From the IMG/VR virus record IMGVR_UViG_2671180275_000009, positions 1-40,622 of that record: a DNA stretch of 40,622 nt. One strand, given 5' to 3'. Below the pieces are notes generated by a model. That model saw nothing but the letters and a program-made list of their open reading frames with translations. It did not search any database and was not told the DNA's origin. Numbering within the stretch: the stretch's first letter is position 1; the number at the start of each line of letters is the position of its first letter. The translations under genes were made by a program, and so were the position numbers. This document shows, one piece after another, positions 1 through 19,231 of the stretch. Source of the stretch: a virus (Duplodnaviria; Heunggongvirae; Uroviricota; Caudoviricetes).

Positions 1-1589
1 ATGATGTTAAATGCATGGCACCTGCCGGTGCCCCCATTTGTTAAACAAAGCAAAGATCAACTGCTCATTACACTGTGGCTGACGGGCGAAGACCCACCGC
101 AGCGCATTATGCTGCGTACAGAACACGATAACGAAGAAATGTCAGTATCGATGCATAAGCAGCGCAGTCAGCAGCAGCCTGGCGTCACCGCATGGCGTGC
201 GGCGATTGATCTCTCCAGCGGACAACCCCGGCGGCGTTACAGTTTCAAACTGCTGTGGCACGATCGCCAGCGTTGGTTTACACCGCAGGGCTTCAGCCGA
301 ATGCCGCCGGCACGACTGGAGCAGTTTGCCGTCGATGTACCGGATATCGGCCCACAATGGGCTGCGGATCAGATTTTTTATCAGATCTTCCCTGATCGTT
401 TTGCGCGTAGTCTTCCTCGTGAAGCTGAACAGGATCATGTCTATTACCATCATGCAGCCGGACAAGAGATCATCTTGCGTGACTGGGATGAACCGGTCAC
501 GGCGCAGGCGGGCGGATCAACGTTCTATGGCGGCGATCTGGACGGGATAAGCGAAAAACTGCCGTATCTGAAAAAGCTTGGCGTGACGGCGCTGTATCTC
601 AATCCGGTGTTTAAAGCTCCCAGCGTACATAAATACGATACCGAGGATTATCGCCATGTCGATCCGCAGTTTGGCGGTGATGGGGCGTTGCTGCGCTTAC
701 GCCACAATACGCAGCAGCTGGGAATGCGGCTGGTGCTGGATGGCGTGTTTAACCACAGTGGCGATTCCCATGCCTGGTTTGACAGGCACAATCGTGGCAC
801 GGGGGGAGCTTGTCACAACCCTGAATCGCCCTGGCGCGACTGGTACTCGTTTAGTGATGATGGCACGGCGCTCGACTGGCTTGGCTATGCCAGCTTGCCG
901 AAGCTGGATTATCAGTCGGAAAGTCTGGTGAATGAAATTTATCGCGGGGAAGACAGTATTGTCCGCCATTGGCTGAAAGCGCCGTGGAGTATGGACGGCT
1001 GGCGGCTGGATGTGGTGCATATGCTGGGGGAGGCGGGTGGGGCGCGCAATAATATGCAGCACGTTGCTGGGATCACCGAAGCGGCGAAAGAAACCCAGCC
1101 GGAAGCGTATATTGTCGGCGAACATTTTGGCGATGCACGGCAATGGTTACAGGCCGATGTGGAAGATGCCGCCATGAACTATCGTGGCTTCACATTCCCG
1201 TTGTGGGGATTTCTTGCCAATACCGATATCTCTTACGATCCGCAGCAAATTGATGCCCAAACCTGTATGGCCTGGATGGATAATTACCGCGCAGGGCTTT
1301 CTCATCAACAACAATTACGTATGTTTAATCAGCTCGACAGCCACGATACTGCGCGATTTAAAACGCTGCTCGGTCGGGATATTGCGCGCCTGCCGCTGGC
1401 GGTGGTCTGGCTGTTCACCTGGCCTGGTGTACCGTGCATTTATTACGGTGATGAAGTAGGACTGGATGGCAAAAACGATCCGTTTTGCCGTAAACCGTTC
1501 CCCTGGCAGGTGGAAAAGCAGGATACGGCGTTATTCGCGCTGTACCAGCGAATGATTGCGCTGCGTAAGAAAAGTCAGGCGCTGCGTCG
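1..1589 (+). pseudogene. malZ: Maltodextrin glucosidase MalZ, N-terminal ~529 codons; the frame runs into prophage sequence and stops at 1602
   Basis: Translation matches my recollection of E. coli MalZ N-terminus ([32 protein letters not shown]...); native MalZ is ~604 aa, here the C-terminus is replaced by ...ALRRVTR* from the element end. Confidence 0.85.
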
Positions 1590-1780
1590 TGTAACCAGGT
1601 AAATCATTTGATACCGACAAGGGTTTTAGTGAAAGGAGGTGAAATCACCTGTAAGATACTGAAATAAAACAGGTGATCGATGATTCTGGAGGTTACTTAG
1701 TTTTGATACTGATTAAATAAAATCCGGTATAAAATTAAGGCATCGGCAACAAATTTGATACTGCACATACTGCTTATAGA
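1590..1780 (+). repeat. Prophage left end (attL-like) with three TTTGATAC-containing putative transposase-binding repeats and an 8-bp inverted repeat
   Basis: TTTGATAC at 1607-1614, 1702-1709 and 1754-1761 (spacing 95 and 52 bp, similar to Mu L1/L2/L3 layout); TCACCTGT 1643-1650 and ACAGGTGA 1669-1676. Confidence 0.5.
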
Positions 1781-1895
1781 CGTTTTAAAAAGTACTTAAA
1801 ATGTCTTTCATGCTAAAAAGTTTATATCAATGTCGATCTGGTCACAAATCAAGTTGAAAGTGCTCGCTAAGTGCATAGGACTGGGCTTCATGGGG

Positions 1896-2414
1896 TTACG
1901 CTTTGGCTTCTTTATGGGTTAGATTGAAATGATGATCCTTGGTTTCATCTCCCTCGAAAATCTCTCTAACCTTTTGATCTGATAAATTATTGAGGCTCAA
2001 TGCTGCCAGGCGTCGAATACCTGTTAAAGCGATCAGCTCTTGATTCTCTTGATTGCAGAATTCCAGCAATTTTTCTACCCCTTTCCTTCTCAAGGTGTAA
2101 ATAACTAATTCTTGCTCTTCTTGGTTCAAGGTGTCGATGAGTTCGAGCAACTCGCTATTGCCACCGTTCTTTTTAGGGGCTTGGTGTTTTATTTCTGCAC
2201 TACCTGTAATGATGGAAACTACATGTGCAGGTAAGTCGCTTAAACGGTAGGCAAATGCTCTCCCTCTGATACCGGGTGTAGTTACCGAACGTTTTTCCCA
2301 TCCTTCATTTTTTGCTCGTTTATGAAGCCCAGCCAGAGATGAAGGAAGACCTCCAACCCCCAACAAGTCACTGGCAAGGATCCATTCTTGGTCAAGGATC
2401 ATATCAAACTCCAT
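1896..2414 (-). CDS. c: Mu repressor c-like protein
   Basis: Minus-strand ORF divergent from ner; N-terminal LPSSLAGLHKRAKNEGW motif shared with the N-terminus of the transposase at 2859, as in Mu Repc and MuA. Confidence 0.7.
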   Translation of the reverse strand: MEFDMILDQEWILASDLLGVGGLPSSLAGLHKRAKNEGWEKRSVTTPGIRGRAFAYRLSDLPAHVVSIITGSAEIKHQAPKKNGGNSELLELIDTLNQEEQELVIYTLRRKGVEKLLEFCNQENQELIALTGIRRLAALSLNNLSDQKVREIFEGDETKDHHFNLTHKEAKA

Positions 2415-2632
2415 TTGATATTAACTTTTGTTCATATCTCTTCTGTGGTTTATTTCAAAAATAATCTAATATAAAACAAATAGATATCGAGTAAATCTAA
2501 GGAATTTGAAATTAACCGGTTGATATTTACTTAGTTAATATCTAATATATCAAACATACACTAGTGAGTAACTCAATAGAGTAGCACACATGAGTAATAA
2601 AGTTTGCCATAGAAAGTACACAGGGGGCCATT
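2415..2632. promoter_or_regulatory. c/ner divergent operator-promoter region (candidate operators and transposition enhancer)
   Basis: 218-bp AT-rich intergenic region between divergent c and ner; palindrome AACCGGTT at 2514-2521; repeated ATATCTAATAT-like motifs. Confidence 0.4.
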
Positions 2633-2878
2633 GTGAGTCTTATTGAAGATTGGTCTTCCGCCGATATAAAGGCAGCCTTAGAAAAACGCGATACCAATTT
2701 GTCACGTTTATCAAGGGAAAATAATTTGCAGCCTAGGACTTTGGGTAATGCTTTGCGAGTTCCCTACCCTAAAGGTGAAAAGATTATTGCTAGGGCTATA
2801 GGTGTAGAGCCGCAAGTTATTTGGCCTACTAGATATGAACGACGTGCGCGGAGGAAATATGTGGGTTGCAATGACTGA
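2633..2878 (+). CDS. ner: Ner-like DNA-binding protein (GTG start)
   Basis: 81-aa ORF with ...GEKIIARAIGVEPQVIWPTRY, resembling the Mu Ner C-terminus (...IIANALETKPEVIWPSRY). Confidence 0.8.
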   Translation: MSLIEDWSSADIKAALEKRDTNLSRLSRENNLQPRTLGNALRVPYPKGEKIIARAIGVEPQVIWPTRYERRARRKYVGCND

Positions 2879-4943
2879 ATTGATTTCATTCAGTGACCTA
2901 CCTAGTTCTTTGGCAGGTCTGCACAAAAAAGCAAAGAGGGAGGCGTGGAAAACGCGGCTAAAACCAGGGGTAAAAGGGAAAGTTTTAGAGTGTGAAATAG
3001 GTGCTTTGCCTTTAACTGTTCAGCAGGCAGTACGTGAACGCTACGCCCTGCAACTGATGACGCAAAAAGCCGATGAATCACCGGCTCCGGTGGTGACAAA
3101 GGCCAGACGCTCACCTGCCGTGGTTGATGCGGTGGAGGCATATCGCGGATCACCACAACTGATGGTCGAACGCCTCAATGCCCTGACTGAAAACCAGCGC
3201 CAGGTGGCTGATGCACGAATCGCGATCGTCAGCGAAGTTCTGAAAGTCGCGCAACAACCTGGTTTCAGCTGTGCGAAGGCTATCCGGTTTATCGTTGACA
3301 ACCTGGCACGTTCGCAGCTGGACGAGCGCATTGTGGCAATGGTTGAGACGGCGAACGCCAAAAAGGGAAACAGCCGCGCGTTAAGTGAAATCACGCTGAA
3401 ACGCTGGATTGCGGCCTTTAACAAGGCGCAGAACGCCGCTGAACGCCTGCTTTTACTGGCACCGGGTAAGCGCCAGGAAATAAAAGCCGAAGATATTAAC
3501 TGGCTGCCCGAATTTCTGGCGCAGTATCGCCAGTCAAACGGCCGACCAATGACCGAGGCTTACGAGGATTTTGTCGCTGAATGGCAGCACCGGCACGCTG
3601 ATGAGCCTTATATGCTCGATATCATGCCGTCTTATGACACCATTCGCCGCGCAATGAAGAAACTGCCGGAAGTGGTGAAACAAAAAGGCCGGGTGACCGG
3701 CAGTGAATACCGTCAGCTTGAGGGATTCACGCGCCGCGACTGGTCCAGAATGCCGGTGAATTATGTCTGGATTGGTGACGGTCACGGCATGAAGCTGAAA
3801 TGCAAACACCCGGTTCACGGACGGCCATTTGCACCGGAAGTGACCTTTATTATCGACGGTGGCACACGCTTTGTGGTGGGCTGGAGCATGGACCTGGCTG
3901 AAAATGTTTTCGCCGTAGCCGGTGCCATACAGCACGGCATTCGTCATCACGGCAAACCGTTTCTGTATTACTCGGATAACGGTTCGGGGGAAACCGCCGA
4001 CATCCTGGATAAGGAGGTTGTGGGGATCCTGCCGCGCCTGGGGATTAATCACCCGACAGGGATTGCCGGTAATCCGCAGGGGCGAGGCATTATCGAACGG
4101 CTTAACCGCACATTACCAATGCGCATAGCCCGTAAATACCGCACCTATTTCGGGAAAGGTGCAGATCGCGAAACGTTACGCAAAACCAACCGCGATTTAC
4201 GCTCGGCATTCACTGCCCTGCAACAGGACAAACGGCTGAACGCCCGGCAGCAGTCAGCGATGCGTGATTTACCGTCCTGGCCTGAACTGATTGATGCCAT
4301 CCGTGATGGTGTCGAGTGGTACAACAACCGGCCGCACAGCGGATTGCCGGTGAAACCGAACGGTAAACATTACAGCCCGGCGGAATACAGGAAAAAACGC
4401 CTGGCAGAAGAGGACACGGAAATTGAATGGCTGTCCGATGTTGAGCTGCGGGATATGTTCCGGCCAATGGTGGAACGCCCTGTAAGACGCTGTGAAATAC
4501 GCTGGCTGAATAATATTTACTACGCGCCCGAGCTGCGTGATGAGCATGGCCGCAAGGTGCTTATCAGCTATGACATTCATGATGCCGAACGAATTACCGT
4601 ACGTCGCCTGGATGGCAGCGTGATTTGCGAGGCGGTATGGGACGGTAATAAACGCGAAGCCTTCCCGGTTAGCGCGGAATACTACAAACAGCAGCAACGC
4701 CTTAAAGGCATGCGTAAACGCGCAGAGGAAAAAATCCGTGATGCCGAGGATGAGGTTGTCAACGTGCTGGAGCACAAGCCGCAGGAGCCCTGGCTGGAAA
4801 ACATATACCGCCCTGTGGGTAATACGGTGACCGTTCAGCAACCGGTCGCTGACGATGAACCTGATGAAGAATGCGAGCGTAATTTCCAGCGGGGATTGCA
4901 GCTGCTTGAAGCGAAATTAAAAGAAAATGACCCGCTGGCCTGA
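2859..4943 (+). CDS. A: Mu A-type DDE transposase
   Basis: ~694-aa ORF; N-terminal repressor-like DNA-binding motif (LPSSLAGLHKKAKREAWKTR); position after ner; start 2859 or 2868 uncertain. Confidence 0.9.
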   Translation: MWVAMTELISFSDLPSSLAGLHKKAKREAWKTRLKPGVKGKVLECEIGALPLTVQQAVRERYALQLMTQKADESPAPVVTKARRSPAVVDAVEAYRGSPQLMVERLNALTENQRQVADARIAIVSEVLKVAQQPGFSCAKAIRFIVDNLARSQLDERIVAMVETANAKKGNSRALSEITLKRWIAAFNKAQNAAERLLLLAPGKRQEIKAEDINWLPEFLAQYRQSNGRPMTEAYEDFVAEWQHRHADEPYMLDIMPSYDTIRRAMKKLPEVVKQKGRVTGSEYRQLEGFTRRDWSRMPVNYVWIGDGHGMKLKCKHPVHGRPFAPEVTFIIDGGTRFVVGWSMDLAENVFAVAGAIQHGIRHHGKPFLYYSDNGSGETADILDKEVVGILPRLGINHPTGIAGNPQGRGIIERLNRTLPMRIARKYRTYFGKGADRETLRKTNRDLRSAFTALQQDKRLNARQQSAMRDLPSWPELIDAIRDGVEWYNNRPHSGLPVKPNGKHYSPAEYRKKRLAEEDTEIEWLSDVELRDMFRPMVERPVRRCEIRWLNNIYYAPELRDEHGRKVLISYDIHDAERITVRRLDGSVICEAVWDGNKREAFPVSAEYYKQQQRLKGMRKRAEEKIRDAEDEVVNVLEHKPQEPWLENIYRPVGNTVTVQQPVADDEPDEECERNFQRGLQLLEAKLKENDPLA

Positions 4944-5019
4944 AATAAAAAAATAACCCGAGCGGCGACTCAGGTTATTTGATTAAACAAAGGTATCTAT
5001 ATAAACGCGAGGTAATAAT

Positions 5020-5952
5020 ATGACCGATATTAACGATGTAATCAAGACCATTGATGAGCTTATTGATGGCGGCGTACTGACGCAGTATGCCATCGCCAGA
5101 GAGGCGGGAATTTCCGACGGCACATTATCGGCTTTCCGCAAGGGAAAATATAAAGGCGATAACGCTGCTGTGGCTGCTTCCCTGCGCTCCTGGTATGAGA
5201 ACTGGAATAAACAAAGCGCACTGCCCGAGCCGCCGCAGTTTGTGGAAACGCAGACAGTCCAGGAGCTGCGCGCGCTGTTTCAGGCGGTCCGCCTGATGGG
5301 CTGTATTAACGTCATAGTGGGCGTGCCCGGGGTGGGTAAAACGGCCACGGCTCGTAATTACTGTCAGGAACAACCGAACACCTGGATGATCACCCTGTCG
5401 CCCGCGCATTCCAGCGTCACGGAGTGTCTGCTGGAGCTGGCAGAGGAACTGGGGATTGATTACACCCGCGCGAACAAGGGGGCGTTATCCCGCGCCATCC
5501 GCCGTCGCCTGATGGGAACGCGTGGACTGGTGATTGTTGATGAGGCGGATCACCTTGGTATTGACGGTCTGGAACAACTGCGTGCAATCCAGGACGCCAC
5601 GGGGATCGGGATGGTGCTTATTGGTAACCCACGCGGACTGTTTAAGGGTGGACGCCGCGCCGTTGATGATTTATCGCGCCTGTTCAGTCGTCTTGCCCGT
5701 ACAAAACAACTTCGCAAGGCCAAAAAGGCGGATGTGCTGGCCATTGCCAGGGCATGGGGGATTAGTGGTGAGGCCGAGCTGGCTGTCATGCAGGCTATCG
5801 CTGAAAAGCCGGGAGCCTTACGCGTTCTGACACATACGCTTAACCAGGCGTGGATCACCGCCAGCGGTGAAGGCGCGGCGCTGACAGAAAAACATATTAA
5901 TGCGGCCTTTAAAGAGGTTTATACCAACCCTGAATTACTCTCACAGGTGTGA
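5020..5952 (+). CDS. B: Mu B-type transposition ATPase
   Basis: 310-aa ORF with N-terminal HTH-like region and Walker A GVPGVGKT; immediately downstream of A. Confidence 0.85.
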   Translation: MTDINDVIKTIDELIDGGVLTQYAIAREAGISDGTLSAFRKGKYKGDNAAVAASLRSWYENWNKQSALPEPPQFVETQTVQELRALFQAVRLMGCINVIVGVPGVGKTATARNYCQEQPNTWMITLSPAHSSVTECLLELAEELGIDYTRANKGALSRAIRRRLMGTRGLVIVDEADHLGIDGLEQLRAIQDATGIGMVLIGNPRGLFKGGRRAVDDLSRLFSRLARTKQLRKAKKADVLAIARAWGISGEAELAVMQAIAEKPGALRVLTHTLNQAWITASGEGAALTEKHINAAFKEVYTNPELLSQV

Positions 5953-6176
5953 TTATGGCTGCATTTAATATTCCTGATATTTACGGACGCTTTTACCTGG
6001 TGAATTTCGATAACGTGAAAGTGATTTCACTGGCCGAAAATAAAGAATGTGGTGATTTACTTTTTGAATTTAATGACCGCACACGAATGGTGATATCTGC
6101 CGGACTTGATCGCGAAGGTGCGACAGACGTTTACAGCGGAATATGCCGTTCTGTTGGTGCAAAACAAGTCAGCTAA
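5949..6176 (+). CDS. Hypothetical early protein (75 aa)
   Basis: ORF overlapping B stop (ATGA-type coupling); no recognisable motif. Confidence 0.45.
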   Translation: MIMAAFNIPDIYGRFYLVNFDNVKVISLAENKECGDLLFEFNDRTRMVISAGLDREGATDVYSGICRSVGAKQVS

Positions 6177-6188
6177 ATGAGGTGTTAT

Positions 6189-6443
6189 ATGAATATGCAA
6201 TCCTGCGGTAACAAAATGAATTTATTCGACTCCCTGAACAGCGCGCGTCGTCTGACCGAACTTGCCGGTGCGGTACTGGAGCGCAGCAAACGCTACCCAC
6301 AACGTTATGCCCTGAAAACCACGCCGCCGGTAAACGAAGTTAAGGGAACCGGTGAAATTGAAATCACTGTTCAGACCAATGGCCTGCGCCGCCGTGTAAA
6401 AGCCACCCGCATAAGCGGCTGCACGGTTTACTGGGAAGTATGA
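6189..6443 (+). CDS. Hypothetical early protein
   Basis: ORF with GAGGTG Shine-Dalgarno before ATG 6189 (track start 6177). Confidence 0.45.
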   Translation: MNMQSCGNKMNLFDSLNSARRLTELAGAVLERSKRYPQRYALKTTPPVNEVKGTGEIEITVQTNGLRRRVKATRISGCTVYWEV

Positions 6444-6790
6444 AGTTGCTTCATGGTTCGACTCTGTCATCAGGTCAGACGCCGGGGCAGTTATCCAAAC
6501 AGAACGAGGACCAGAGGGTGAGTAAAGTCGTACGCATTATTTTCGAATACAAGGAGCACGTTATCCATAAAAACGCGGATGGAACAGTGCGCATGGGGGT
6601 AAGTCTGGACATACGTTCAACCGGGATAAAGCAGAAAGGTGATGGACCTGCCATGATTTTTGGGGTGGTTATGCTCGCGGAAAGCAGAGACTTTGCTGAA
6701 CTTGTGGCAATGAAAGCCAGTGCGCTCATGAAAGATATGAACATGAGTTCCGGGGTTATTAAAGGTAATGAATTTAATCAGCAGGGGTAA
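6440..6790 (+). CDS. Hypothetical early protein, paralogue 1 of a tandem pair (alternative GTG start at 6518)
   Basis: Contains SKVVRIIFEYKEHVIHKNADG, similar to the start of the next ORF; GAGGA RBS 7 nt before GTG 6518. Confidence 0.5.
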   Translation: MKLLHGSTLSSGQTPGQLSKQNEDQRVSKVVRIIFEYKEHVIHKNADGTVRMGVSLDIRSTGIKQKGDGPAMIFGVVMLAESRDFAELVAMKASALMKDMNMSSGVIKGNEFNQQG

Positions 6791-6794
6791 TTCC

Positions 6795-7088
6795 ATGAGC
6801 AAAGTACGCGTTATTTTTGAATTTGAGCATGTTTCGCATGACGAAAAATCGGCAGGCAATGACAGTGTTGAAGTGCATGAAAAGATTGGAGTAGATGTGA
6901 AAACAGAACGTGATACGGATAACAGGCCGACGTCACTCTGTGACGTTTATGCAAGCATTCTCCAGTATCACAGTCCTGTAATTATTCAGTTTCTCTCAGC
7001 GGAATTTCAGGCATCTGTACAGGCTTTTGGGGCGGATGCCATCATTAAACGCCACCGTGTGCATAAAGCATCAGGCACACTGCAATAA
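6795..7088 (+). CDS. Hypothetical early protein, paralogue 2 of a tandem pair
   Basis: Starts MSKVRVIFEFEHVSHDEKSAGND, paralogous to the preceding ORF; RBS before ATG 6795. Confidence 0.55.
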   Translation: MSKVRVIFEFEHVSHDEKSAGNDSVEVHEKIGVDVKTERDTDNRPTSLCDVYASILQYHSPVIIQFLSAEFQASVQAFGADAIIKRHRVHKASGTLQ

Positions 7089-7098
7089 GGAAAACAAA

Positions 7099-7629
7099 AT
7101 GGTTAAACGTGTTACAAAATTAAAGGCCGCAGCCGAGGCTGCACCGCAGACCCGCGAAGAAGTCAGCCGCGATATCCGAACCCTGGGCGATATTCAGCGA
7201 GAGGCGCTGCGCCTGGAAACGGCAATGAATGATGAAGTGGCAGAAATCACCGCCCGTTATACGCCGCAGATTGAAAACCTTAAAAAAGAAATCAAAGTGC
7301 TTTTTAAAGGGATTCATGACTGGTGTAAAACCAACCGCAATGAGCTGACGAACGGCGGCGAAACCAAAACTGCCAATCTGACCACCGGAACGGTGTCATG
7401 GCGGCTGGGAAATCCATCATGCAGCGTCAGTCGTGATGTGGAGGGTGTGATTGAAATGCTGCGTCGTATGGGGCTTGAGCGCTTCATCCGCACGAAAGAG
7501 GAAGTGAATAAGCAAGCTGTCCTGGCAGAGCCGGATGCGGTGAAAGGGATTGCTGGTATTAAGGTGAATAAAGGCGCTGAAAGTTTTCATGTCGAGCCTT
7601 TTGAACAGGACGCCGGACTGAATAAATAA
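7099..7629 (+). CDS. gam: Gam-like host-nuclease inhibitor (Ku-like DNA end-binding protein)
   Basis: Strong similarity to my recollection of Mu Gam (..LGDIQREALRLETAMNDEVAEIT..NRNELTNGGETKTANLTTGTVSWR..LERFIRTKEEVNKQA..); AAGGA RBS before ATG 7099. Confidence 0.85.
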   Translation: MVKRVTKLKAAAEAAPQTREEVSRDIRTLGDIQREALRLETAMNDEVAEITARYTPQIENLKKEIKVLFKGIHDWCKTNRNELTNGGETKTANLTTGTVSWRLGNPSCSVSRDVEGVIEMLRRMGLERFIRTKEEVNKQAVLAEPDAVKGIAGIKVNKGAESFHVEPFEQDAGLNK

Positions 7630-7713
7630 CACCGCATTAAATCTTTAAATATCACATCGTTTTAATTATGGCGCTCGCGTCAGGGGACTGCTCGCGCCTG
7701 AATGAGGCATGTC

Positions 7714-8292
7714 ATGAGTATTAAATATCGTTATTTTAAAATGAATGAGAGCGATTCCCGTCATTATCACAGGGAATGGCTTGATTGTGTTGGCAGGGAG
7801 CGCCAGAAATTGATTGATGATTTTCTCAGTAATCAGAATGCCAGAGGGTATTGTTGTTCCTGGTATTGTGGGGATTTTTTTGTCAAATCAATACTGGTGC
7901 ATGAGGATGTTGATGTCGGAAGAAATAAACGGGTGTTGTCTGATAAATTTGATGAAGATGGCCGTACTTTATTTTCAGTTAAGCCCGACCGCAGATTCAG
8001 AGAGGGAAAAAAACTGAACAAAGCACTGAATATCTTAAACGAGAAGTTAAAACAGCTTCCGTCATTCAGTACCTGGATGGTTAATAAACTGGACTGCTAT
8101 TTTGAGGTTTTTGGTGTCAGCAACGGCCGCACAGTTATGGCGTGCTCTTCTGCCGGGTTCTATGGCGACAAAGGGGCTGTTGTGGTTCGTATTCCTGTCG
8201 GTGAATCAGATAATGCCTTTTCACCTGAAAAGCTGCATCCGTCATTGATGGCAATCAAGCATTCCGAATTCATCGCAATAACGGAGGAATAA
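7714..8292 (+). CDS. Hypothetical protein encoded in an AT-rich segment (candidate moron)
   Basis: ORF with visibly lower GC than flanking phage genes; no recognisable family. Confidence 0.5.
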   Translation: MSIKYRYFKMNESDSRHYHREWLDCVGRERQKLIDDFLSNQNARGYCCSWYCGDFFVKSILVHEDVDVGRNKRVLSDKFDEDGRTLFSVKPDRRFREGKKLNKALNILNEKLKQLPSFSTWMVNKLDCYFEVFGVSNGRTVMACSSAGFYGDKGAVVVRIPVGESDNAFSPEKLHPSLMAIKHSEFIAITEE

Positions 8293-8295
8293 TTC

Positions 8296-8829
8296 ATGAT
8301 TGATGCAAAAGTGCTTGAAGGGGTTAAAAGCTGGCTGCGTTTTTCTGGCCGTCTGACCAGTCGTTCTCTGGCAGAAAAAATGAATATGCCGCTATCCTCC
8401 ATGGTTTATTTTCTGCGTGATGCGGTCGATGCCGGTGTGCTGACGGACCGTAACGGTTTTTATGATATTCCGCGTCCCCGCCCGGTGCAGCCGGTTCGTC
8501 GCAAATGCAGCCAGGAGTCTGCGGCTGATGATGTTCAGTGGTGCAGCTTCAGAAAATCCCTGCCGTGGATTGAAGGGCATGATATTCCGTCGATGGCGTG
8601 GGAATTTGCTCAGGGCGTTCTGACCTGTGAAACCGTTTATGTGGTGGCTGAAGTTGATGAGCAGGCCATGAAAGAAGGCGTGCCCCAGTTTGTGATGGCG
8701 TATATCGACATTCGCCTGGGTGTCATTATCTGCGGTTTAAGCGGCTGGAATATCACCGCGCGTGTTCTGCGTTACCTGATTGTTGACCGGACGGCCGCGC
8801 CTGCCGGGATATCTGCGGAGGTGGCGTAA
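8296..8829 (+). CDS. Hypothetical protein, possible N-terminal winged-helix
   Basis: 177-aa ORF tightly packed after the previous gene. Confidence 0.5.
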   Translation: MIDAKVLEGVKSWLRFSGRLTSRSLAEKMNMPLSSMVYFLRDAVDAGVLTDRNGFYDIPRPRPVQPVRRKCSQESAADDVQWCSFRKSLPWIEGHDIPSMAWEFAQGVLTCETVYVVAEVDEQAMKEGVPQFVMAYIDIRLGVIICGLSGWNITARVLRYLIVDRTAAPAGISAEVA

Positions 8830-9344
8830 TGTTCTTTAAAACATCAAACCCTGCCGCGCTGGCTGCGTGGCAAAAATACCAGCAGGACTACAAGAAAGTT
8901 AAGGATGAGGCAAAACGTCTTGAGGCCGTGCTGAATGTTGCGTGCCGGTCGGTATTTGTATCCGGTATCAATGGTTTTTATTTTAAGGGACTGCGTTTTA
9001 CGGATGACAAATATCCTTTTCATCGAGACTTATGGCGAAAACCGACTGCGTCGAATGGCTGGAGCTGCACGCCGCGCACATCGTGTATTCCCAAAGCCCT
9101 GCGCTCTGCCTCTGACGAACTTAACAGTCTGTGGCGTGAATATTCGCCCGTCACGTATGCCAGAACCGATGCGCTGTTGTTCTGGCTGGGCATTGACTTC
9201 TCAGCAATATTGCATGGTCCCGTGAAGTGGTTCTGCGTTGACGATGTGATTTACCTTGAGTGTGGCGTAAAACCCGCAAAACAGAAAATGACCGAAATTC
9301 TGTCTGATGAGTTTTATGCTGCTGAAAAGCGAGTCAGGGGGTGA
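8829..9344 (+). CDS. Hypothetical early protein
   Basis: 171-aa ORF, start overlaps previous stop. Confidence 0.5.
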   Translation: MFFKTSNPAALAAWQKYQQDYKKVKDEAKRLEAVLNVACRSVFVSGINGFYFKGLRFTDDKYPFHRDLWRKPTASNGWSCTPRTSCIPKALRSASDELNSLWREYSPVTYARTDALLFWLGIDFSAILHGPVKWFCVDDVIYLECGVKPAKQKMTEILSDEFYAAEKRVRG

Positions 9345-9347
9345 TGC

Positions 9348-9899
9348 ATGATGAAATTACAACCCATGGGACGAAAAGGTCGGGCACCCGCTCATGTCCG
9401 CGCATGGACACCTGAAGAAGATGCGCTGCTGATTGCGCTTTATTCGTCCACCCCGGTTAAGGATATTGCTGTCAGAGTAAAAAGAAGTTACTGGGGAGTA
9501 TATAACCGGATTATTTTATTACGCGGTATTTACCCGCAGTTGCTCAAATGCAAACGTCCCAGATTTAAACCTGATGAAGATAAATTTATCCGAAAAAATG
9601 CCAGGACGATGACCGGTAAGCAAATAGGAGAATATCTGGGGCGAGACCGGGATTCTGTCCACAATCGGGCGCGATATATTGCCGTAAGCATGAAAAAATA
9701 CGGAGAATTGCTGCCTTTTACCCGCATACCTGACGATGATGTTCATCTTATTCGTAAATTACGGGATGCAGAGTCGCCACGACGTCTTACCTTCCGGGAA
9801 ATTGGCGAGAAATTTGAATTATCCGAGGGCACGGTGAGTTTTATTTATCACCGTCGCCGGACTGCCGAAGATGTTGTATTACGGGAGTTAATGCCATGA
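9348..9899 (+). CDS. Hypothetical DNA-binding protein with three HTH-like repeats
   Basis: Three internal segments of similar design (WTPEEDALLIALY..., FKPDEDKFIRKNA..., DDDVHLIRKLRD...LTFREIGEKFELSEGTVSFIYHRRR). Confidence 0.45.
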   Translation: MMKLQPMGRKGRAPAHVRAWTPEEDALLIALYSSTPVKDIAVRVKRSYWGVYNRIILLRGIYPQLLKCKRPRFKPDEDKFIRKNARTMTGKQIGEYLGRDRDSVHNRARYIAVSMKKYGELLPFTRIPDDDVHLIRKLRDAESPRRLTFREIGEKFELSEGTVSFIYHRRRTAEDVVLRELMP

Positions 9900-10228
9900 T
9901 AACGACATTATTTGTTGAATCAGATGAACCCCTTGTGTGTGCCGCCGGAATGCCGGTCTGTGGCGGAACGCTGACCGGTGTTTATTTCGGGGATTTGCGC
10001 GGTTATCCCTGGCATTCACTGGATGACGCATTTCCGCCTGATATGGAGGCTGTCGTGCTGATTGTTCAGTATGGTGACCAACAGGAACTGCGCATCGGCC
10101 ATATGGGGTATGAAGGCTTTTTTATTGATGAAGAAACCGGAGCCTGCCTTGAAGATGAGGACGGACAGGTGACGCACTGGTGCCATATTTCAGCTTTACC
10201 GGAATTACAGGAGACGCCCAATGGATGA
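9896..10228 (+). CDS. Hypothetical protein (DUF551-like C-terminus)
   Basis: 110-aa acidic ORF ending ...VTHWCHISALPEL. Confidence 0.45.
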   Translation: MITTLFVESDEPLVCAAGMPVCGGTLTGVYFGDLRGYPWHSLDDAFPPDMEAVVLIVQYGDQQELRIGHMGYEGFFIDEETGACLEDEDGQVTHWCHISALPELQETPNG

Positions 10229-10361
10229 TCAAATAGTTGAATGTCCCACCTGTGGAAATGAAGCCCCGGAGTATCTGAAAGAGTGCCCACATTGTGGTGA
10301 GGTAAAATGTAATCACTGCGATATGGGCGACGACACTGCATGTATGAATTGTGAGGATTAA
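10221..10361 (+). CDS. Small zinc-ribbon protein (46 aa), absent from the ORF track
   Basis: MDDQIVECPTCGNEAPEYLKECPHCGEVKCNHCDMGDDTACMNCED; four CxxC pairs; AGGAG RBS 7 nt upstream of ATG 10221. Confidence 0.45.
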   Translation: MDDQIVECPTCGNEAPEYLKECPHCGEVKCNHCDMGDDTACMNCED

Positions 10362-10365
10362 TAAT

Positions 10366-10653
10366 ATGGAAAAAGAAATCAAATTTGCGCCTAAAGATAT
10401 CGACGAAGAACTGGCTAAAATCGGCATGCTTGAGCGTATGCGGGACATTATCGAATATGCGATAAAAGAAAATCTTGCAGCCAGAGAAGCCCTTTTGATA
10501 ATGGAGCGGGAGATTAACCTGATTAAGGATGCTGTATCTCTGGATAATAAAATAGCCCGCGAGGAATACGTTCGCCGCAGGCTCGGTGTTGATGGTTCAG
10601 CAATTCTTACATCTGAACATTATGCAAAAATCTTTAATCTTTTTTCGCGGTAA
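10366..10653 (+). CDS. Hypothetical early protein
   Basis: ORF starting MEKEIKF with GAGGA RBS (track start 10351 is a GTG extension). Confidence 0.45.
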   Translation: MEKEIKFAPKDIDEELAKIGMLERMRDIIEYAIKENLAAREALLIMEREINLIKDAVSLDNKIAREEYVRRRLGVDGSAILTSEHYAKIFNLFSR

Positions 10654-10873
10654 TGCCCATGCAGGCCCGGAGATTGTCGAAATGCCAGTTTGTATTAATA
10701 TATGAGCCATCCTGGTGTCCCTCTGCGCTTTGGGGTGCGGCACTTTTTTGAGCAATATTGATAATATGTGTTGCCTCCTCACGGGAAATAACCCCCTTAT
10801 CGAACAGGGTTACCATAAGATTTCCAGCCATTGTGAATGCGGCAACATCAAGGGCATTTTTTATATCTGACAT
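10634..10873 (-). CDS. Hypothetical protein on the opposite strand within the early region
   Basis: 79-aa minus-strand ORF with AAGGA RBS 7 nt before its ATG; convergent with and overlapping the 3' end of the previous plus-strand ORF. Confidence 0.45.
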   Translation of the reverse strand: MSDIKNALDVAAFTMAGNLMVTLFDKGVISREEATHIINIAQKSAAPQSAEGHQDGSYINTNWHFDNLRACMGITAKKD

Positions 10874-10901
10874 AGATTTTTCCTTTTATGTTAATTGACA
10901 T

Positions 10902-10930
10902 GGCGGTGCGGTAACACCGCCCATTTTTTA
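10902..10930 (+). terminator. Rho-independent terminator candidate
   Basis: GGCGGTG / CACCGCC 7-bp stem with 6-nt loop followed by CATTTTTTA. Confidence 0.5.
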
Positions 10931-10943
10931 TGGAGCCACGATA

Positions 10944-11456
10944 ATGAATCGCGCTTCCCTGATTACCTTAATACATGTCGCAAAACGCGATCTACAGCTT
11001 GACCGGGAGACCTATATATCCGCGCTGCTGGCAGCCACCGGCAAAACCAGCTGCCGGGATATGTCACCGGATGAGTTGTCCCGCGTGCTGGATGTTTTCA
11101 AAAAACGCGGTTTTAAAGTGCGTCAGAACCCGGTTAACCGGGCCTTAAAACCGGGTACGGTGACCGCTAAAATTCGCGCCATCTGGAAGGTGATGCACCG
11201 GCAGGGCTTTATCTCTGATGGTGCGGAAACCGCCCTTAACCGCTGGGTGAAATCGCAGACGGCCGCGCAAAACGGCGGCGAAGGTGTGGCAAACTGGCAG
11301 TGGCTGGAGCAACACCCCGCCCTGGCCTCAGATGTGCTGGAGCGTCTCAAGCGATGGCACCGCCGCAAAATGCTGGCCGCGATGGGAATGCCCGAACGCA
11401 CGCTGATGGGGTATGACGCCGTTTGCAGGCAGTATGAAAAATCACTTCCCCGTTAA
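10944..11456 (+). CDS. gemA: GemA-like protein (Mu gp16 family)
   Basis: 170-aa ORF in the position of Mu gemA; conserved-looking basic, Trp-containing C-terminal region. Confidence 0.65.
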   Translation: MNRASLITLIHVAKRDLQLDRETYISALLAATGKTSCRDMSPDELSRVLDVFKKRGFKVRQNPVNRALKPGTVTAKIRAIWKVMHRQGFISDGAETALNRWVKSQTAAQNGGEGVANWQWLEQHPALASDVLERLKRWHRRKMLAAMGMPERTLMGYDAVCRQYEKSLPR

Positions 11457-11460
11457 CCCC

Positions 11461-11490
11461 AAATCCCGCCACAACGCGGGATTTTTATTT
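11461..11490 (+). terminator. Rho-independent terminator candidate after gemA
   Basis: AAATCCCGC / GCGGGATTT stem, 6-nt loop, followed by TTTTATTTT. Confidence 0.6.
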
Positions 11491-11525
11491 TAAACTTACC
11501 GGGAACGCGAGAACCGGAGGCTGAT

Positions 11526-11951
11526 ATGGCAGAAACTCAGATGAGCATGTTTGGTGGTGACAGTGAGCAACTGCACGCCCTTATCGACCGCCTTGATGAC
11601 ATCCCTGATGATGTTCTCAAAAAGAACTGGCCGCGGACCCTGTCAGAACTGGTTGAAGTCACCGGCGCAGAACTTCAGCGTCAGGGGATTGAGCCGGTAC
11701 TGGCCGGCAAACTGGCACGCAAGGTGGCTGCGGCTCAGGCAGCCTATATGGGCGGACGGGGTTATTACCTGCCGGTCGGGGAATCTCTCTTTGCCGAGCT
11801 GCGAAACAATGAGATATTTTCGCGCTGGGACCGGGGCGAGAAAATTGAATCCCTTCGCCGCCATTACCGGATGTCAGAAACCCAGATTTATACCGTCATA
11901 CGCGAACAGCGCCGTCTGCATCTGGCAAGAACGCAACCGCCACTTTTCTGA
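11526..11951 (+). CDS. Mor/C-family transcription activator
   Basis: 141-aa ORF between gemA and lys with C-terminal HTH-like segment (RRHYRMSETQIYTVIREQRR); cannot assign Mor versus C. Confidence 0.6.
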   Translation: MAETQMSMFGGDSEQLHALIDRLDDIPDDVLKKNWPRTLSELVEVTGAELQRQGIEPVLAGKLARKVAAAQAAYMGGRGYYLPVGESLFAELRNNEIFSRWDRGEKIESLRRHYRMSETQIYTVIREQRRLHLARTQPPLF

Positions 11952-12022
11952 TATTCCGCAAAGCCTGCCGCCTTTCCTTCACCGTTACGCTGACTCAGAG
12001 AACATCATGAGACAGCGTAACA

Positions 12023-12523
12023 ATGCCAAAACTCCCCGCACCACTGCGTAAAAAGCTGATTGCCCTTGTTCTGGCCGGTGCCGGGACGTTCACGATTGCC
12101 ACGCATTACACCGGTTACTGGGAAGGGAAAGAAAACTCCACGTATATCGATCCCACCGGTACACCCACCATCTGTTACGGCCATACCGGCCCGGATGTGA
12201 AACCGGGTATGACCCTGACGGATGAAGAATGCCTGGAACTGCTGGAAAAGGACATGAAATGGGCCTTTGCGGCCATTGATCGGCGTGTTCAGGTGCCGCT
12301 TACCCGTGGTCAGACGGTGGCGCTGGCTTCGTGGATCTTCTGGGCCGGTGAAACGAACTTCCGCAACTCCACGCTTCTGCGCCTGATCAATGCCGGGCAG
12401 ATGCCCGCGTCCTGTAAGCAGTATATCCGCTGGATTTATTCAAAGGGGGTGAAACTCCCCGGCCTTGAGGCCCGCCGTTCGGCGGATGAATGGTTATGTC
12501 GCTACGATTTGCCGAAAGTCTGA
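12023..12523 (+). CDS. lys: SAR endolysin (phage lysozyme)
   Basis: N-terminal weakly hydrophobic Gly/Ala-rich signal-anchor (LIALVLAGAGTFTIA) then lysozyme-like domain (..GYWEGKE..TICYGHTG..). Confidence 0.8.
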   Translation: MPKLPAPLRKKLIALVLAGAGTFTIATHYTGYWEGKENSTYIDPTGTPTICYGHTGPDVKPGMTLTDEECLELLEKDMKWAFAAIDRRVQVPLTRGQTVALASWIFWAGETNFRNSTLLRLINAGQMPASCKQYIRWIYSKGVKLPGLEARRSADEWLCRYDLPKV

Positions 12524-12635
12524 ACCGCTTCTGGCGACCGCTCATGATTGCGCTGCTGTGTGCCGTTGTGCTGCTGCGGGGTGTGCTGTGGCTGCGGTGA
12601 ATAATCCCTTACCGGCCCTGATTGCCGGAGGCTGT

Positions 12636-12986
12636 ATGGCGGCGCTGGGGGTGATGAGCGTGCTGGCTGCCGTGGTATGGGGAATGCACCAGAAGACGCA
12701 GCGCCTTGAGGACAATAATCATGTGCTTGTGCGCGAACGGGACGAAGCCCGTCTGGTGCTGGCAAACCAGCAACGCACCCTGCAACTCATTTCACAAATC
12801 AGTGAGGCGGCCACGAATGAAAAACAACAGAACATTCAGCACAGCGAGGGGCAGCAGAGCGTTGTCCGCCGGTCGCTGGCAGCAGTGCCTGCGGCCTCTG
12901 CCCCTGTTCCTGATGATGTGGCTGATCGGGTGCGCCGGGCCGTCTGTGAAATACGTGCCTGTGAAGCCGGTGCCGATCCCCGCTGA
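12636..12986 (+). CDS. i-spanin candidate (Rz-like)
   Basis: GGAGG RBS before ATG 12636; N-terminal TM segment (MAALGVMSVLAAVVWG) then coiled-coil-like region; alternative GTG start 12597; the long track start 12465 is probably an artefact. Confidence 0.5.
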   Translation: MAALGVMSVLAAVVWGMHQKTQRLEDNNHVLVRERDEARLVLANQQRTLQLISQISEAATNEKQQNIQHSEGQQSVVRRSLAAVPAASAPVPDDVADRVRRAVCEIRACEAGADPR

Positions 12987-13188
12987 ATGGCTGGCTGACT
13001 GCCTGGTGCCTCCTGCGCCGGAGCCGTTCACGTTTGGGGCATCGGTCACTTACAACCTGCAACTGCTGGCGGTGATCAAGAACTGCAACGTGGACAAGGC
13101 CAGTATTCGTCGTCTGGAGGCGCGGCGACAACATGAATTTACTGATATGGCCGGAACGCCTGCTGTTCCGGCAGGAAAGACGAAGTAA
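12817..13188 (+). CDS. o-spanin candidate (Rz1-like outer-membrane lipoprotein)
   Basis: Starts in a different frame inside the i-spanin gene; lipobox LIGC after a hydrophobic segment; Pro-rich mature part; GAGG RBS before ATG 12817. Confidence 0.6.
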   Translation: MKNNRTFSTARGSRALSAGRWQQCLRPLPLFLMMWLIGCAGPSVKYVPVKPVPIPAEWLADCLVPPAPEPFTFGASVTYNLQLLAVIKNCNVDKASIRRLEARRQHEFTDMAGTPAVPAGKTK

Positions 13189-13197
13189 GGAAAAGCT

Positions 13198-13425
13198 ATG
13201 GATGATTCAGATCGTGCTCAGGCTGTGATGGAGCGGGGATCAGAACGCGCCCTTTGTAACCGGCTGACACGTAAGTGCCGGGCAATGGATGCTCCGGGCA
13301 GACGTGTCTGCGCAGACTGTGGCGGAGAGATCCCCGCCGCACGTCTTGTTGCTGTGCCGGATGCCATCCGTTGTGTGAACTGCCAGAACATCATGGAGGC
13401 CCGTCATGTGGGTCAGCATCGTTAA
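13198..13425 (+). CDS. TraR/DksA-family C4 zinc-finger protein
   Basis: CADCGGEIPAARLVAVPDAIRCVNC gives CxxC-17-CxxC spacing typical of the zf-DksA/TraR family. Confidence 0.7.
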   Translation: MDDSDRAQAVMERGSERALCNRLTRKCRAMDAPGRRVCADCGGEIPAARLVAVPDAIRCVNCQNIMEARHVGQHR

Positions 13426-13714
13426 AGATTATGTTGTGCCGATCCTTTCGGCGACGGCAACCGCTGGCGGGATATTCATGGCGCTGATGCGCAAAACGTT
13501 TGTCCCCCGCGAGGCCTTTGAAAAACTCTCCGACCGCGTTGAGAAGGTGGAAACCCGCCTGTCGTCACTGCCGACAGAAGCCGAGGTCAACCGTCTGAAT
13601 GTGGAAATCGTGACCCTGCGGGGTGAACTGAAAACCACGAACGCCACGCTCCGCTCTGTCTCCTATCAGAACGAACTGCTGCTGGAGCAGGCTGTAAGGA
13701 AAAAAACGCAATGA
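13406..13714 (+). CDS. Small membrane protein with coiled-coil
   Basis: N-terminal hydrophobic segment (VPILSATATAGGIFMALM), GGAGG RBS. Confidence 0.5.
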   Translation: MWVSIVKDYVVPILSATATAGGIFMALMRKTFVPREAFEKLSDRVEKVETRLSSLPTEAEVNRLNVEIVTLRGELKTTNATLRSVSYQNELLLEQAVRKKTQ

Positions 13715-19147: not shown

Positions 19148-19231
19148 GTCGGTGGCGGGGGTCGAACCCGCATAAACATCCCTCAGGAAAAAACCATCAG
19201 GCGCCGCTTTACCAGTTAAGAGTACACCGAC
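19148..19231 (-). ncRNA. tRNA-like structure (acceptor stem plus T-arm) between the F-like and G-like genes
   Basis: On the minus strand: GTCGGTG ... GCGGG TTCGACC CCCGC CACCGAC, i.e. a perfect 7-bp acceptor stem and 5-bp T-stem with a TTCGA-type loop; D and anticodon arms are not canonical. Confidence 0.25.

Follow-up and report, generated by a model that had tools for sequence, protein, structure and literature searches.

A minus-strand gene of a Mu-like prophage, the counterpart of phage Mu gene 15 by sequence comparison, in a linked and hypervariable gene pair upstream of gemA

In the RefSeq record of phage Mu (NC_000929.1), gene 15 (Mup15; gene product gp15, 88 aa, NP_050619.1) is placed on the minus strand at 7896-8162, at a distance of 70 nt from gemA and with a 62-nt overlap with gene 14, and SfMu_16 is arranged identically to it. 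A literature search on gp15, Pgem and Mu transcriptomes gave nothing relevant, and no literature on Mu gp15 was found. The DNA stretch studied here, referred to as the window, is the whole 40,622-nt sequence of IMG/VR record IMGVR_UViG_2671180275_000009, which represents a Mu-like (transposable) prophage, and the subject of the study is a 79-aa open reading frame (ORF) on its minus strand, located between homologues of gene 14 and gemA. On the basis of sequence comparisons, this reverse ORF is the prophage's counterpart of Mu gene 15 and a genuine gene under purifying selection. The statements on its identity are made with high confidence.

Mu gene 15 and SfMu_16 resemble the window gene in their position between gene 14 and gemA, in minus-strand orientation, in a 3' overlap with gene 14, in the 70-nt gemA spacer with a GGCGGTG-N6-CACCGCC hairpin, in the homologous N-terminal ca. 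50 residues of the product, and in being functionally uncharacterised. The differences are an overall identity of about 25% between Mu gp15 and the window protein, product lengths of 88 versus 79 aa, overlaps of 62 versus 20 nt, and the absence from the Mu gp15 and SfMu_16 proteins of the C-terminal helix and WH[LF]DNL motif of the window family. In all loci examined, the homologue was located between a converging gene 14-like gene and a diverging gemA, including relatives of 42% and 52% identity, and this synteny was seen in prophages of E. coli, Salmonella and Klebsiella. In hhalign, the family alignment matched Mu gp15 with a probability of 92.5% (E 4.9e-7) over the N-terminal 53 columns. 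Mu gp15 (phrog_8747) matched phrog_32893, the subfamily of the window gene, with E 5.9e-4, the family member P0015 matched phrog_8747 with E 1.2e-4, and reciprocal PHROG cross-matches joined phrog_32893, phrog_38610 and phrog_8747. The top fold match in BFVD was a Mu left-end ORF. The architecture of the gp15 superfamily is a conserved N-terminal helical hairpin of ca. 50 residues followed by a lineage-specific C-terminal helix. The homology and structure prediction proposed in the first-pass annotation of the window led by profile to the Mu gp15 family, and returned a generic three-helix fold with no known domain; that annotation had not recognised the slot of the reverse gene as the known position of Mu gene 15.

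The third PHROG, phrog_38610, represents the D108-type protein, which in phage D108 is encoded by a 119-aa minus-strand ORF in the unannotated gap from gene 14 to gemA (GQ357916, ca. 7853-8212, minus strand; 1566-1925 in our locus L034). This ORF matched phrog_38610 with E 8e-83 and is a member of the gp15 superfamily. D108-type ORFs (84-119 aa) share slot, orientation and hairpin with the window gene, as well as the N-terminal domain (hmmscan cross-matches of E 1e-7 to 1e-14), and differ from it in the C-terminal part (...LFNKLW...), to which D108 adds a long acidic N-terminal extension. The updated GenBank entry for Mu, AF083977.1, has in place of the minus-strand gene 15 a 55-aa plus-strand ORF, Mu_54, which is antisense to gp15; the annotation update is acknowledged in PMC9239132, and the conflicting locus is Mu 7896-8162 (L001 2869-3135, and L036). 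The minus-strand gene 15 is favoured over Mu_54 because of frame openness, homology and the selection data obtained in relatives.

Among closely related prophages, the reverse frame had the lowest ratio of nonsynonymous to synonymous substitution rates (dN/dS) of the six frames (0.23-0.26, when the other five ranged over 0.52-1.25), and the values of the flanking genes were similar (gp14 0.15-0.37, gemA 0.08-0.26). Variable sites fell on codon positions 3, 1 and 2 in numbers of 16, 9 and 5, and AT and GC skew changed sign over the reverse ORF, as expected where the coding strand switches. The protein matched phrog_32893 across its full length (E 2.4e-40). An exhaustive HMMER search over 1.84 billion representatives, together with a profile search over 5.8 billion clusters, revealed a very small family of ca. 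20 clusters (73-80 aa) from E. coli, Salmonella and Klebsiella; a match to P0016, a 322-aa repeat protein, was judged spurious. Full-length homologues at 37-54% identity aligned end to end and conserved D9, F13, N18, L23 and G27 together with a C-terminal W-H-[LF]-D-N-L-x-A motif. The minus-strand frame alone was open in all 15 lineages, plus-strand frames being interrupted in most, and a purine-rich Shine-Dalgarno (SD) sequence was present at the matching place in all homologous loci. The first-pass annotation had described the ORF as preceded by a good ribosome-binding site, directed against early transcription and overlapping the 3' end of the upstream plus-strand gene, and each of these observations holds: AAGGA stands 7 nt before the ATG, the remaining long ORFs between ca. 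2835 and 34374 are all on the plus strand, and 20 nt are shared. A lack of conservation in related elements, along with a missing minus-strand transcript, had been named there as grounds for rejecting the ORF; homologues were found down to 37% identity, with low dN/dS.

Two kinds of variation were observed within the reverse gene. In near-identical prophages, a 33-nt patch with two alleles had a dS of ca. 0.26, when the flanks had 0.03-0.05. Frameshifted versions of the gene also exist, one of them from a visibly error-ridden assembly. A +2 change in the G-run at 10732-10735 recurred in three independent assemblies (L009, L010, L011) with intact neighbouring genes, for which reason this allele is probably real and degenerate. 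In the frameshift allele P0006 the run consists of 8 G, and the reverse gene is shifted into another open frame of 92 aa. The +2 allele could reflect pseudogenisation, switching at a slippage-prone site or a C-terminus that the protein can do without.

The setting of the gene was surveyed in 80 gemA loci from IMG/VR, from which 67 distinct upstream regions were classified. A gp15-type reverse gene was present in 17 of the 67 regions, each time with a converging gene 14 homologue (17/17), and neither gene was ever found alone. In 13 regions a different reverse gene (DUF2513-like, phrog_585) converged on a phrog_1988 forward gene, and 35 regions had co-directional genes only and no reverse gene. 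The alternative pair is likewise convergent, with an overlap of 39 nt, and the gene 14/gene 15 overlap varied from 4 to 62 nt among relatives, its length not being conserved. The gene 14/15 pair is swapped as a unit for the phrog_1988 and DUF2513-like pair in other Mu-like phages. Both cassette types were interspersed along the range of GemA similarity, which indicates several replacement events. The left edge of the cassette is the start of gene 14, adjoining gene 13, and the right edge is the hairpin and gemA; the first codons of gene 14 were common to both cassette types, and the gene 13 homologue was kept upstream of both. The alternative cassette was located at L060 730-1476 and L046 756-1436, and in L094, L105, L112, L115 and L073, with a forward gene of ca. 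100 aa and a reverse gene of 134-138 aa. Searches of its proteins against Pfam, NCBIfam, PADLOC and PDB sequences gave nothing usable, with no PADLOC match to either the phrog_1988 or the DUF2513-like gene.

Within the gp15-type loci, Mu, D108, L108 and L028 have GemA proteins that are 93-97% identical, whereas their gp14 proteins are 35-61% and their gp15 proteins 20-38% identical, representing four gp15 subfamilies. Since gp15 is divergent next to near-identical GemA, the cassette is a module both mosaic and hypervariable. The pairwise identities of gp14 correlated with those of gp15 with Pearson r 0.70, and either set correlated with those of GemA with 0.31-0.35. The first-pass annotation had suggested that such convergent, overlapping genes might form a toxin-antitoxin-like or regulatory pair; the linkage of the two genes was borne out, as they co-occurred in 17/17 regions and are replaced together, and the toxin-antitoxin part fared poorly, as discussed below.

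Table 1. Features of the gene 14/15 cassette and its boundaries in the window (positions of the 40,622-nt stretch).
Feature	Position	Strand	Basis or remark
Gene 13 homologue, 46-aa zinc ribbon	10221-10361	+	phrog_5584, zinc-ribbon Pfam hints; left-hand cassette boundary
Gene 14 (Mu E15) homologue, 95 aa	10366-10653	+	phrog_6075 E 5.9e-44, PHROG shared with Mu gp14
Tail-to-tail overlap of the two coding regions, 20 nt	10634-10653		ORF coordinates
79-aa gene, Mu gene 15 homologue (phrog_32893 subfamily)	10634-10873	-	ATG start; PGAP CDS WP_032204020.1
Variable patch, alleles SAAPQSAEGH / NSTPENAEEI	10713-10745		DNA and protein alignments
Spacer between divergent starts of reverse gene and gemA, 70 nt	10874-10943		length 68-74 nt in relatives
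Shine-Dalgarno AAGGA of reverse gene	10881-10885	-	sequence reading; 7 nt before ATG
Hairpin GGCGGTG-CGGTAA-CACCGCC + T6	10902-10930 (stem-loop 10902-10921)	+	terminator scan
gemA (Mu gene 16) homologue	10944-11456	+	PF06252 GemA E 6.5e-28; right-hand neighbour, cassette boundary

The reverse-gene product is predicted to be a small, acidic and soluble three-helix protein with the fold of a generic three-helix bundle. In the AlphaFold2 model, based on an alignment of 14 sequences, helices covered residues 3-25, 31-44 and 62-71, with a predicted local distance difference test (pLDDT) score of 75 and scores of 88-94 over residues 11-40, and the predicted disordered linker at residues 45-60 coincided with the variable patch. 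The isoelectric point was 5.8 (4.3-6.2 in the family), gp14 being acidic as well, and neither gp14 nor gp15 had a DNA-binding signature. Helix 1 was not accepted as a membrane span, as the maximal Kyte-Doolittle mean over 19 residues was 1.05-1.62, with charged or polar residues inside the stretch.

The 70-nt spacer corresponds to the region annotated in Mu as 'semi-early promoter' (8151-8217), and contains the plus-strand hairpin and T-tract that had been pointed out in the first reading of the sequence; the structure is present and conserved across lineages. It consists of a 7-bp stem with 6 GC pairs and a 6-nt loop, and is followed by CATTTTTT. The tract directly after the stem reads CAUUUUUU, so that the GC-rich stem and U-tract of an intrinsic terminator are both found. 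The 20-nt hairpin motif had one exact match in the whole window. Here the hairpin with its T6 lies 10 nt before the gemA SD; in Mu, D108 and SfMu, as in every gp15-type locus, the hairpin recurs 6-10 nt upstream of that SD. Over 19 distinct sequences, 98.5% of hairpin cells were paired, and two pairs had compensatory changes. Each of the four wobble cells is a G·U pair in the plus-strand RNA, where the minus strand would have A·C, which argues for a structure of the plus-strand RNA. All 17 gp14-gp15 loci had the hairpin, as did 8 of the 13 DUF2513-type loci and 2 of the 37 others; of these last two, one had a remnant reverse ORF and one a different hairpin. The following tract was always pyrimidine-rich, with a T content of 3-7 in 8 nt; about half of the 19 variants had 5 or more T among the 8 nt that follow, and Mu has 3. 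From its sequence, the T6 makes the window hairpin a credible intrinsic terminator, and CCCTTTCC does not do so for that of Mu. A terminator-like scan of 1500-13500 found 9 sites when 13.3 were expected from shuffled sequences, i.e. no enrichment, and the hairpin is considered credible despite this because it is conserved across lineages. A single chance-level match was returned by Rfam on 10300-11300.

A second and much stronger intrinsic terminator was located at 11461-11490 (+), within the 69 nt that separate gemA from mor, with a 9-bp stem, a T-rich tail and a z of -6.0. Together with 10902-10930 it is the best plus-strand terminator-like site of the first 13 kb, and the two bracket gemA. 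In Mu, gemA and mor overlap, with no terminator between them. A weak plus-strand 'terminator' at 10723-10740 was rejected, being located in the variable patch, missing from the other allele and having a z of 0.08. The bases from the gemA SD to the start codon (TACGATCATG; in the window CACGATAATG, 10936-10946; A5 columns 42-54) were nearly invariant in DNA, even where GemA was only ca. 45% identical, which exceeds the usual conservation of such spacers. In two E. coli strains (L004 3367-4064; L005 3340-4036), a copy of IS1A was inserted in the short spacer that separates the reverse gene from the hairpin or gemA, and in one of these strains the whole region from gemA up to the tail genes was deleted as well.

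To the right of the reverse gene, the window continues with GemA, Mor (PF08765, E 2.8e-32) and a lysozyme, and the genes on the left side matched PHROGs from the semi-essential early region of Mu. Over 401 nt around the reverse ORF, the window was 100% identical to E. coli SCU-106, and the same stretch was found in 14 of 5,426 complete E. coli genomes, each time within a Mu-type prophage. In those genomes the ORF is labelled as a hypothetical protein (WP_032204020.1 or WP_001280089.1) by the Prokaryotic Genome Annotation Pipeline (PGAP). At the left end (window 1-4950), coordinates and lengths differ from SCU-106, with a transposase of 702 aa here and 696 aa there, and the window is therefore from a related but not identical prophage. 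Between head genes of SCU-106 (L003 20589-20669, ca. window 19148-19228), PGAP annotated a minus-strand 'tRNA-OTHER'; ARAGORN over the whole window gave no tRNA or tmRNA.

A model for the expression and partners of the reverse gene is put forward tentatively, as one that could well be wrong. The gene points against Pe and is therefore not readable from the early transcript, needing a promoter of its own, which would be weak or non-consensus and would lie within or next to the 70 nt that it has in common with gemA as a spacer. Because transcription from Pe runs head-on into the reverse gene, the product would most likely be made while the prophage is repressed, or constitutively at a low level. 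On induction gp14 would be made, and the reverse gene would then be suppressed by the head-on transcription. The strict linkage, and the replacement of the genes as a cassette, point to gp14 and gp15 cooperating or opposing each other. Proteins of this kind, small, acidic and helical, usually work by binding another protein; gp14 and gp15 would most likely act via protein-protein contacts, either mutual or with a host or phage target, in an accessory, conflict-type function of the semi-essential early region and not in an essential step. The plus-strand hairpin and T6 might serve as an intrinsic terminator or attenuator after an untranslated antisense stretch of ca. 290 nt, in which case expression of gemA-mor would require read-through or a local promoter, such as the semi-early one annotated in Mu.

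Taken as a whole, the explanation that joins a gp15 counterpart, a linked hypervariable cassette, prophage-stage expression, protein contacts and a terminator or attenuator hairpin is judged moderately probable, and several observations weigh against it. Direct BLASTP of the window protein against Mu gp15 gave no match, and the likeness covers the N-terminal half only; what is shared is therefore a domain rather than the protein in its entirety. For gp15- and gp14-type proteins, searches of Pfam, NCBIfam, PADLOC and PDB sequences gave no match, and no usable fold match was obtained either. The rank correlation of gp14 and gp15 identities was weak (Spearman 0.33), and the physical overlap of the genes forces part of their co-variation. 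In one natural lineage the frameshift removes the conserved C-terminal motif, and the gene is therefore dispensable at least in that lineage. A sigma-70 scan of 10300-11100 found no promoter for the reverse gene, although consensus scans miss weak or activated promoters, and no minus-strand terminator was found after its stop codon. In the spacers of 14 lineages, AT-rich stretches were seen, with no consistently placed -10/-35 elements on either strand. A search for expression data on the reverse gene, the transcription of which is presumed, gave none. The isolated hairpin had an unremarkable fold energy (z -0.9), and the T-tract of Mu itself is weak (CCCTTTCC), so that termination may not be the common role of the hairpin.

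Of the other explanations considered, the one that survives best, unlikely as it is, takes the reverse gene for a classic moron, i.e. an independently acquired, prophage-expressed gene of lysogenic conversion or superinfection exclusion that acts alone, gene 14 being linked to it only by position. As is common to morons of temperate phages, the gene is small, accessory and opposite to the surrounding operon and thus reversed relative to Pe, and its expression in the lysogen is plausible. The GC content is lower than in the flanks, at 0.40-0.46 over genes 13-15 versus 0.53-0.63 from gemA onward, and the gene is polymorphic in presence, as 35 of the 67 regions upstream of gemA have no reverse gene and 13 a different one. 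A precedent exists in the Pseudomonas transposable phage Fc02, where small lysogen-expressed genes opposite an early gene give exclusion (PMC9936078). The olg1/olg2 genes of Fc02 are transcribed in the lysogen opposite the early lytic gene 10, as proposed here, but the olg locus is beside the repressor and not gemA, its overlap is extensive and its proteins are unrelated; moreover, exclusion has been demonstrated for olg, whereas for the window locus it would be conjectural. As a difference from morons, no promoter-gene-terminator unit was recognised for the reverse gene in the scans, which by their reliance on consensus miss weak or activated promoters. It was never found without gene 14, and it appears as an old resident diverging in place across Mu-like lineages and not as a recent insertion. 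The product is not membrane-associated either, unlike many exclusion proteins.

Rather improbable, too, is the wider view that transposable phages have a hypervariable 'conflict cassette', of which the gene 14/15 and phrog_1988/DUF2513-like pairs are alternative alleles. In that case, the reverse gene would be expressed while the prophage is repressed, and would counter incoming phages or functions of the host. Its cognate antagonist would be the forward early gene, which on induction would release the lytic cycle of the phage itself, and the hairpin would be an insulator and a recombination anchor for cassette exchange. If true, the cassette would constitute a new convergent protein-protein module of defence and self-immunity.

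Improbable in our judgement is a toxin-antitoxin-like pair, in which gp14 or gp15 would be toxic and neutralised by the other, and the overlap would add control by antisense RNA. As in type II or convergent type I toxin-antitoxin modules, two small, tightly linked and co-inherited genes have 3' ends overlapping on opposite strands; the strict co-occurrence and joint replacement of the genes, the small size of both proteins, the convergent overlap in the alternative cassette and the hypervariability, which is typical of conflict systems, speak in its favour. However, both partners of the gene 14/15 pair are proteins encoded on opposite strands, and the two convergent genes are not co-transcribed, there being no co-directional autoregulated operon. 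No toxin or antitoxin domain or known fold of this kind and no PADLOC match were found, and gp14 and gp15 are both acidic, neither of them showing a DNA-binding signature or an autoregulatory DNA-binding domain. Overlaps range in length from 4 to 62 nt. A natural frameshift is tolerated, as three independent assemblies have a frameshifted gp15 with an intact gp14, which argues weakly against an indispensable antitoxin, and IS1-disrupted neighbourhoods persist.

It is equally doubtful that the locus is a regulatory element first and a protein gene second, with a reverse unit that interferes with or insulates the end of the early operon and, with the hairpin, sets the level or timing of gemA-mor. 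Features that agree with such a role are the spacer fixed at 68-74 nt with a conserved hairpin beside the gemA SD, the near confinement of the hairpin to loci with a reverse gene before gemA, the second strong terminator after gemA in the window phage, and the semi-early promoter annotated in the same spacer of Mu. The protein frame, however, is under purifying selection and keeps its motifs at 37% identity, and the slot is occupied by unrelated proteins, each of which is itself conserved. Lastly, a non-coding spacer open by chance on the minus strand, for which it may be said that an open frame of 80 codons would not, taken alone, be very improbable in AT-rich DNA and that AF083977.1 dropped gene 15 for Mu_54, is effectively refuted by the comparative data, i.e. 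by the lowest dN/dS in the reverse frame, full-length motifs at 37-54% identity, a conserved SD and a sole always-open frame where plus-strand frames are mostly interrupted.

The reverse gene thus represents, in this prophage, a gene known from the Mu map since 2002 and already carrying an annotation as hypothetical, and its novelty is low. The comparative data settle the conflict between the RefSeq and GenBank annotations of Mu toward the minus-strand gene, and reveal the unannotated homologue in D108. The conserved hairpin before gemA gives a handle on the separation of gemA-mor ('semi-early') from the early operon, and the linkage, hypervariability and hairpin make the locus a reasonable, though not urgent, experimental target. 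In the semi-essential early region of Mu-like phages, the gene 14/15 cassette and its two-gene alternative mark a hotspot of diversity, which is a sensible place to seek functions of host interaction or phage exclusion.

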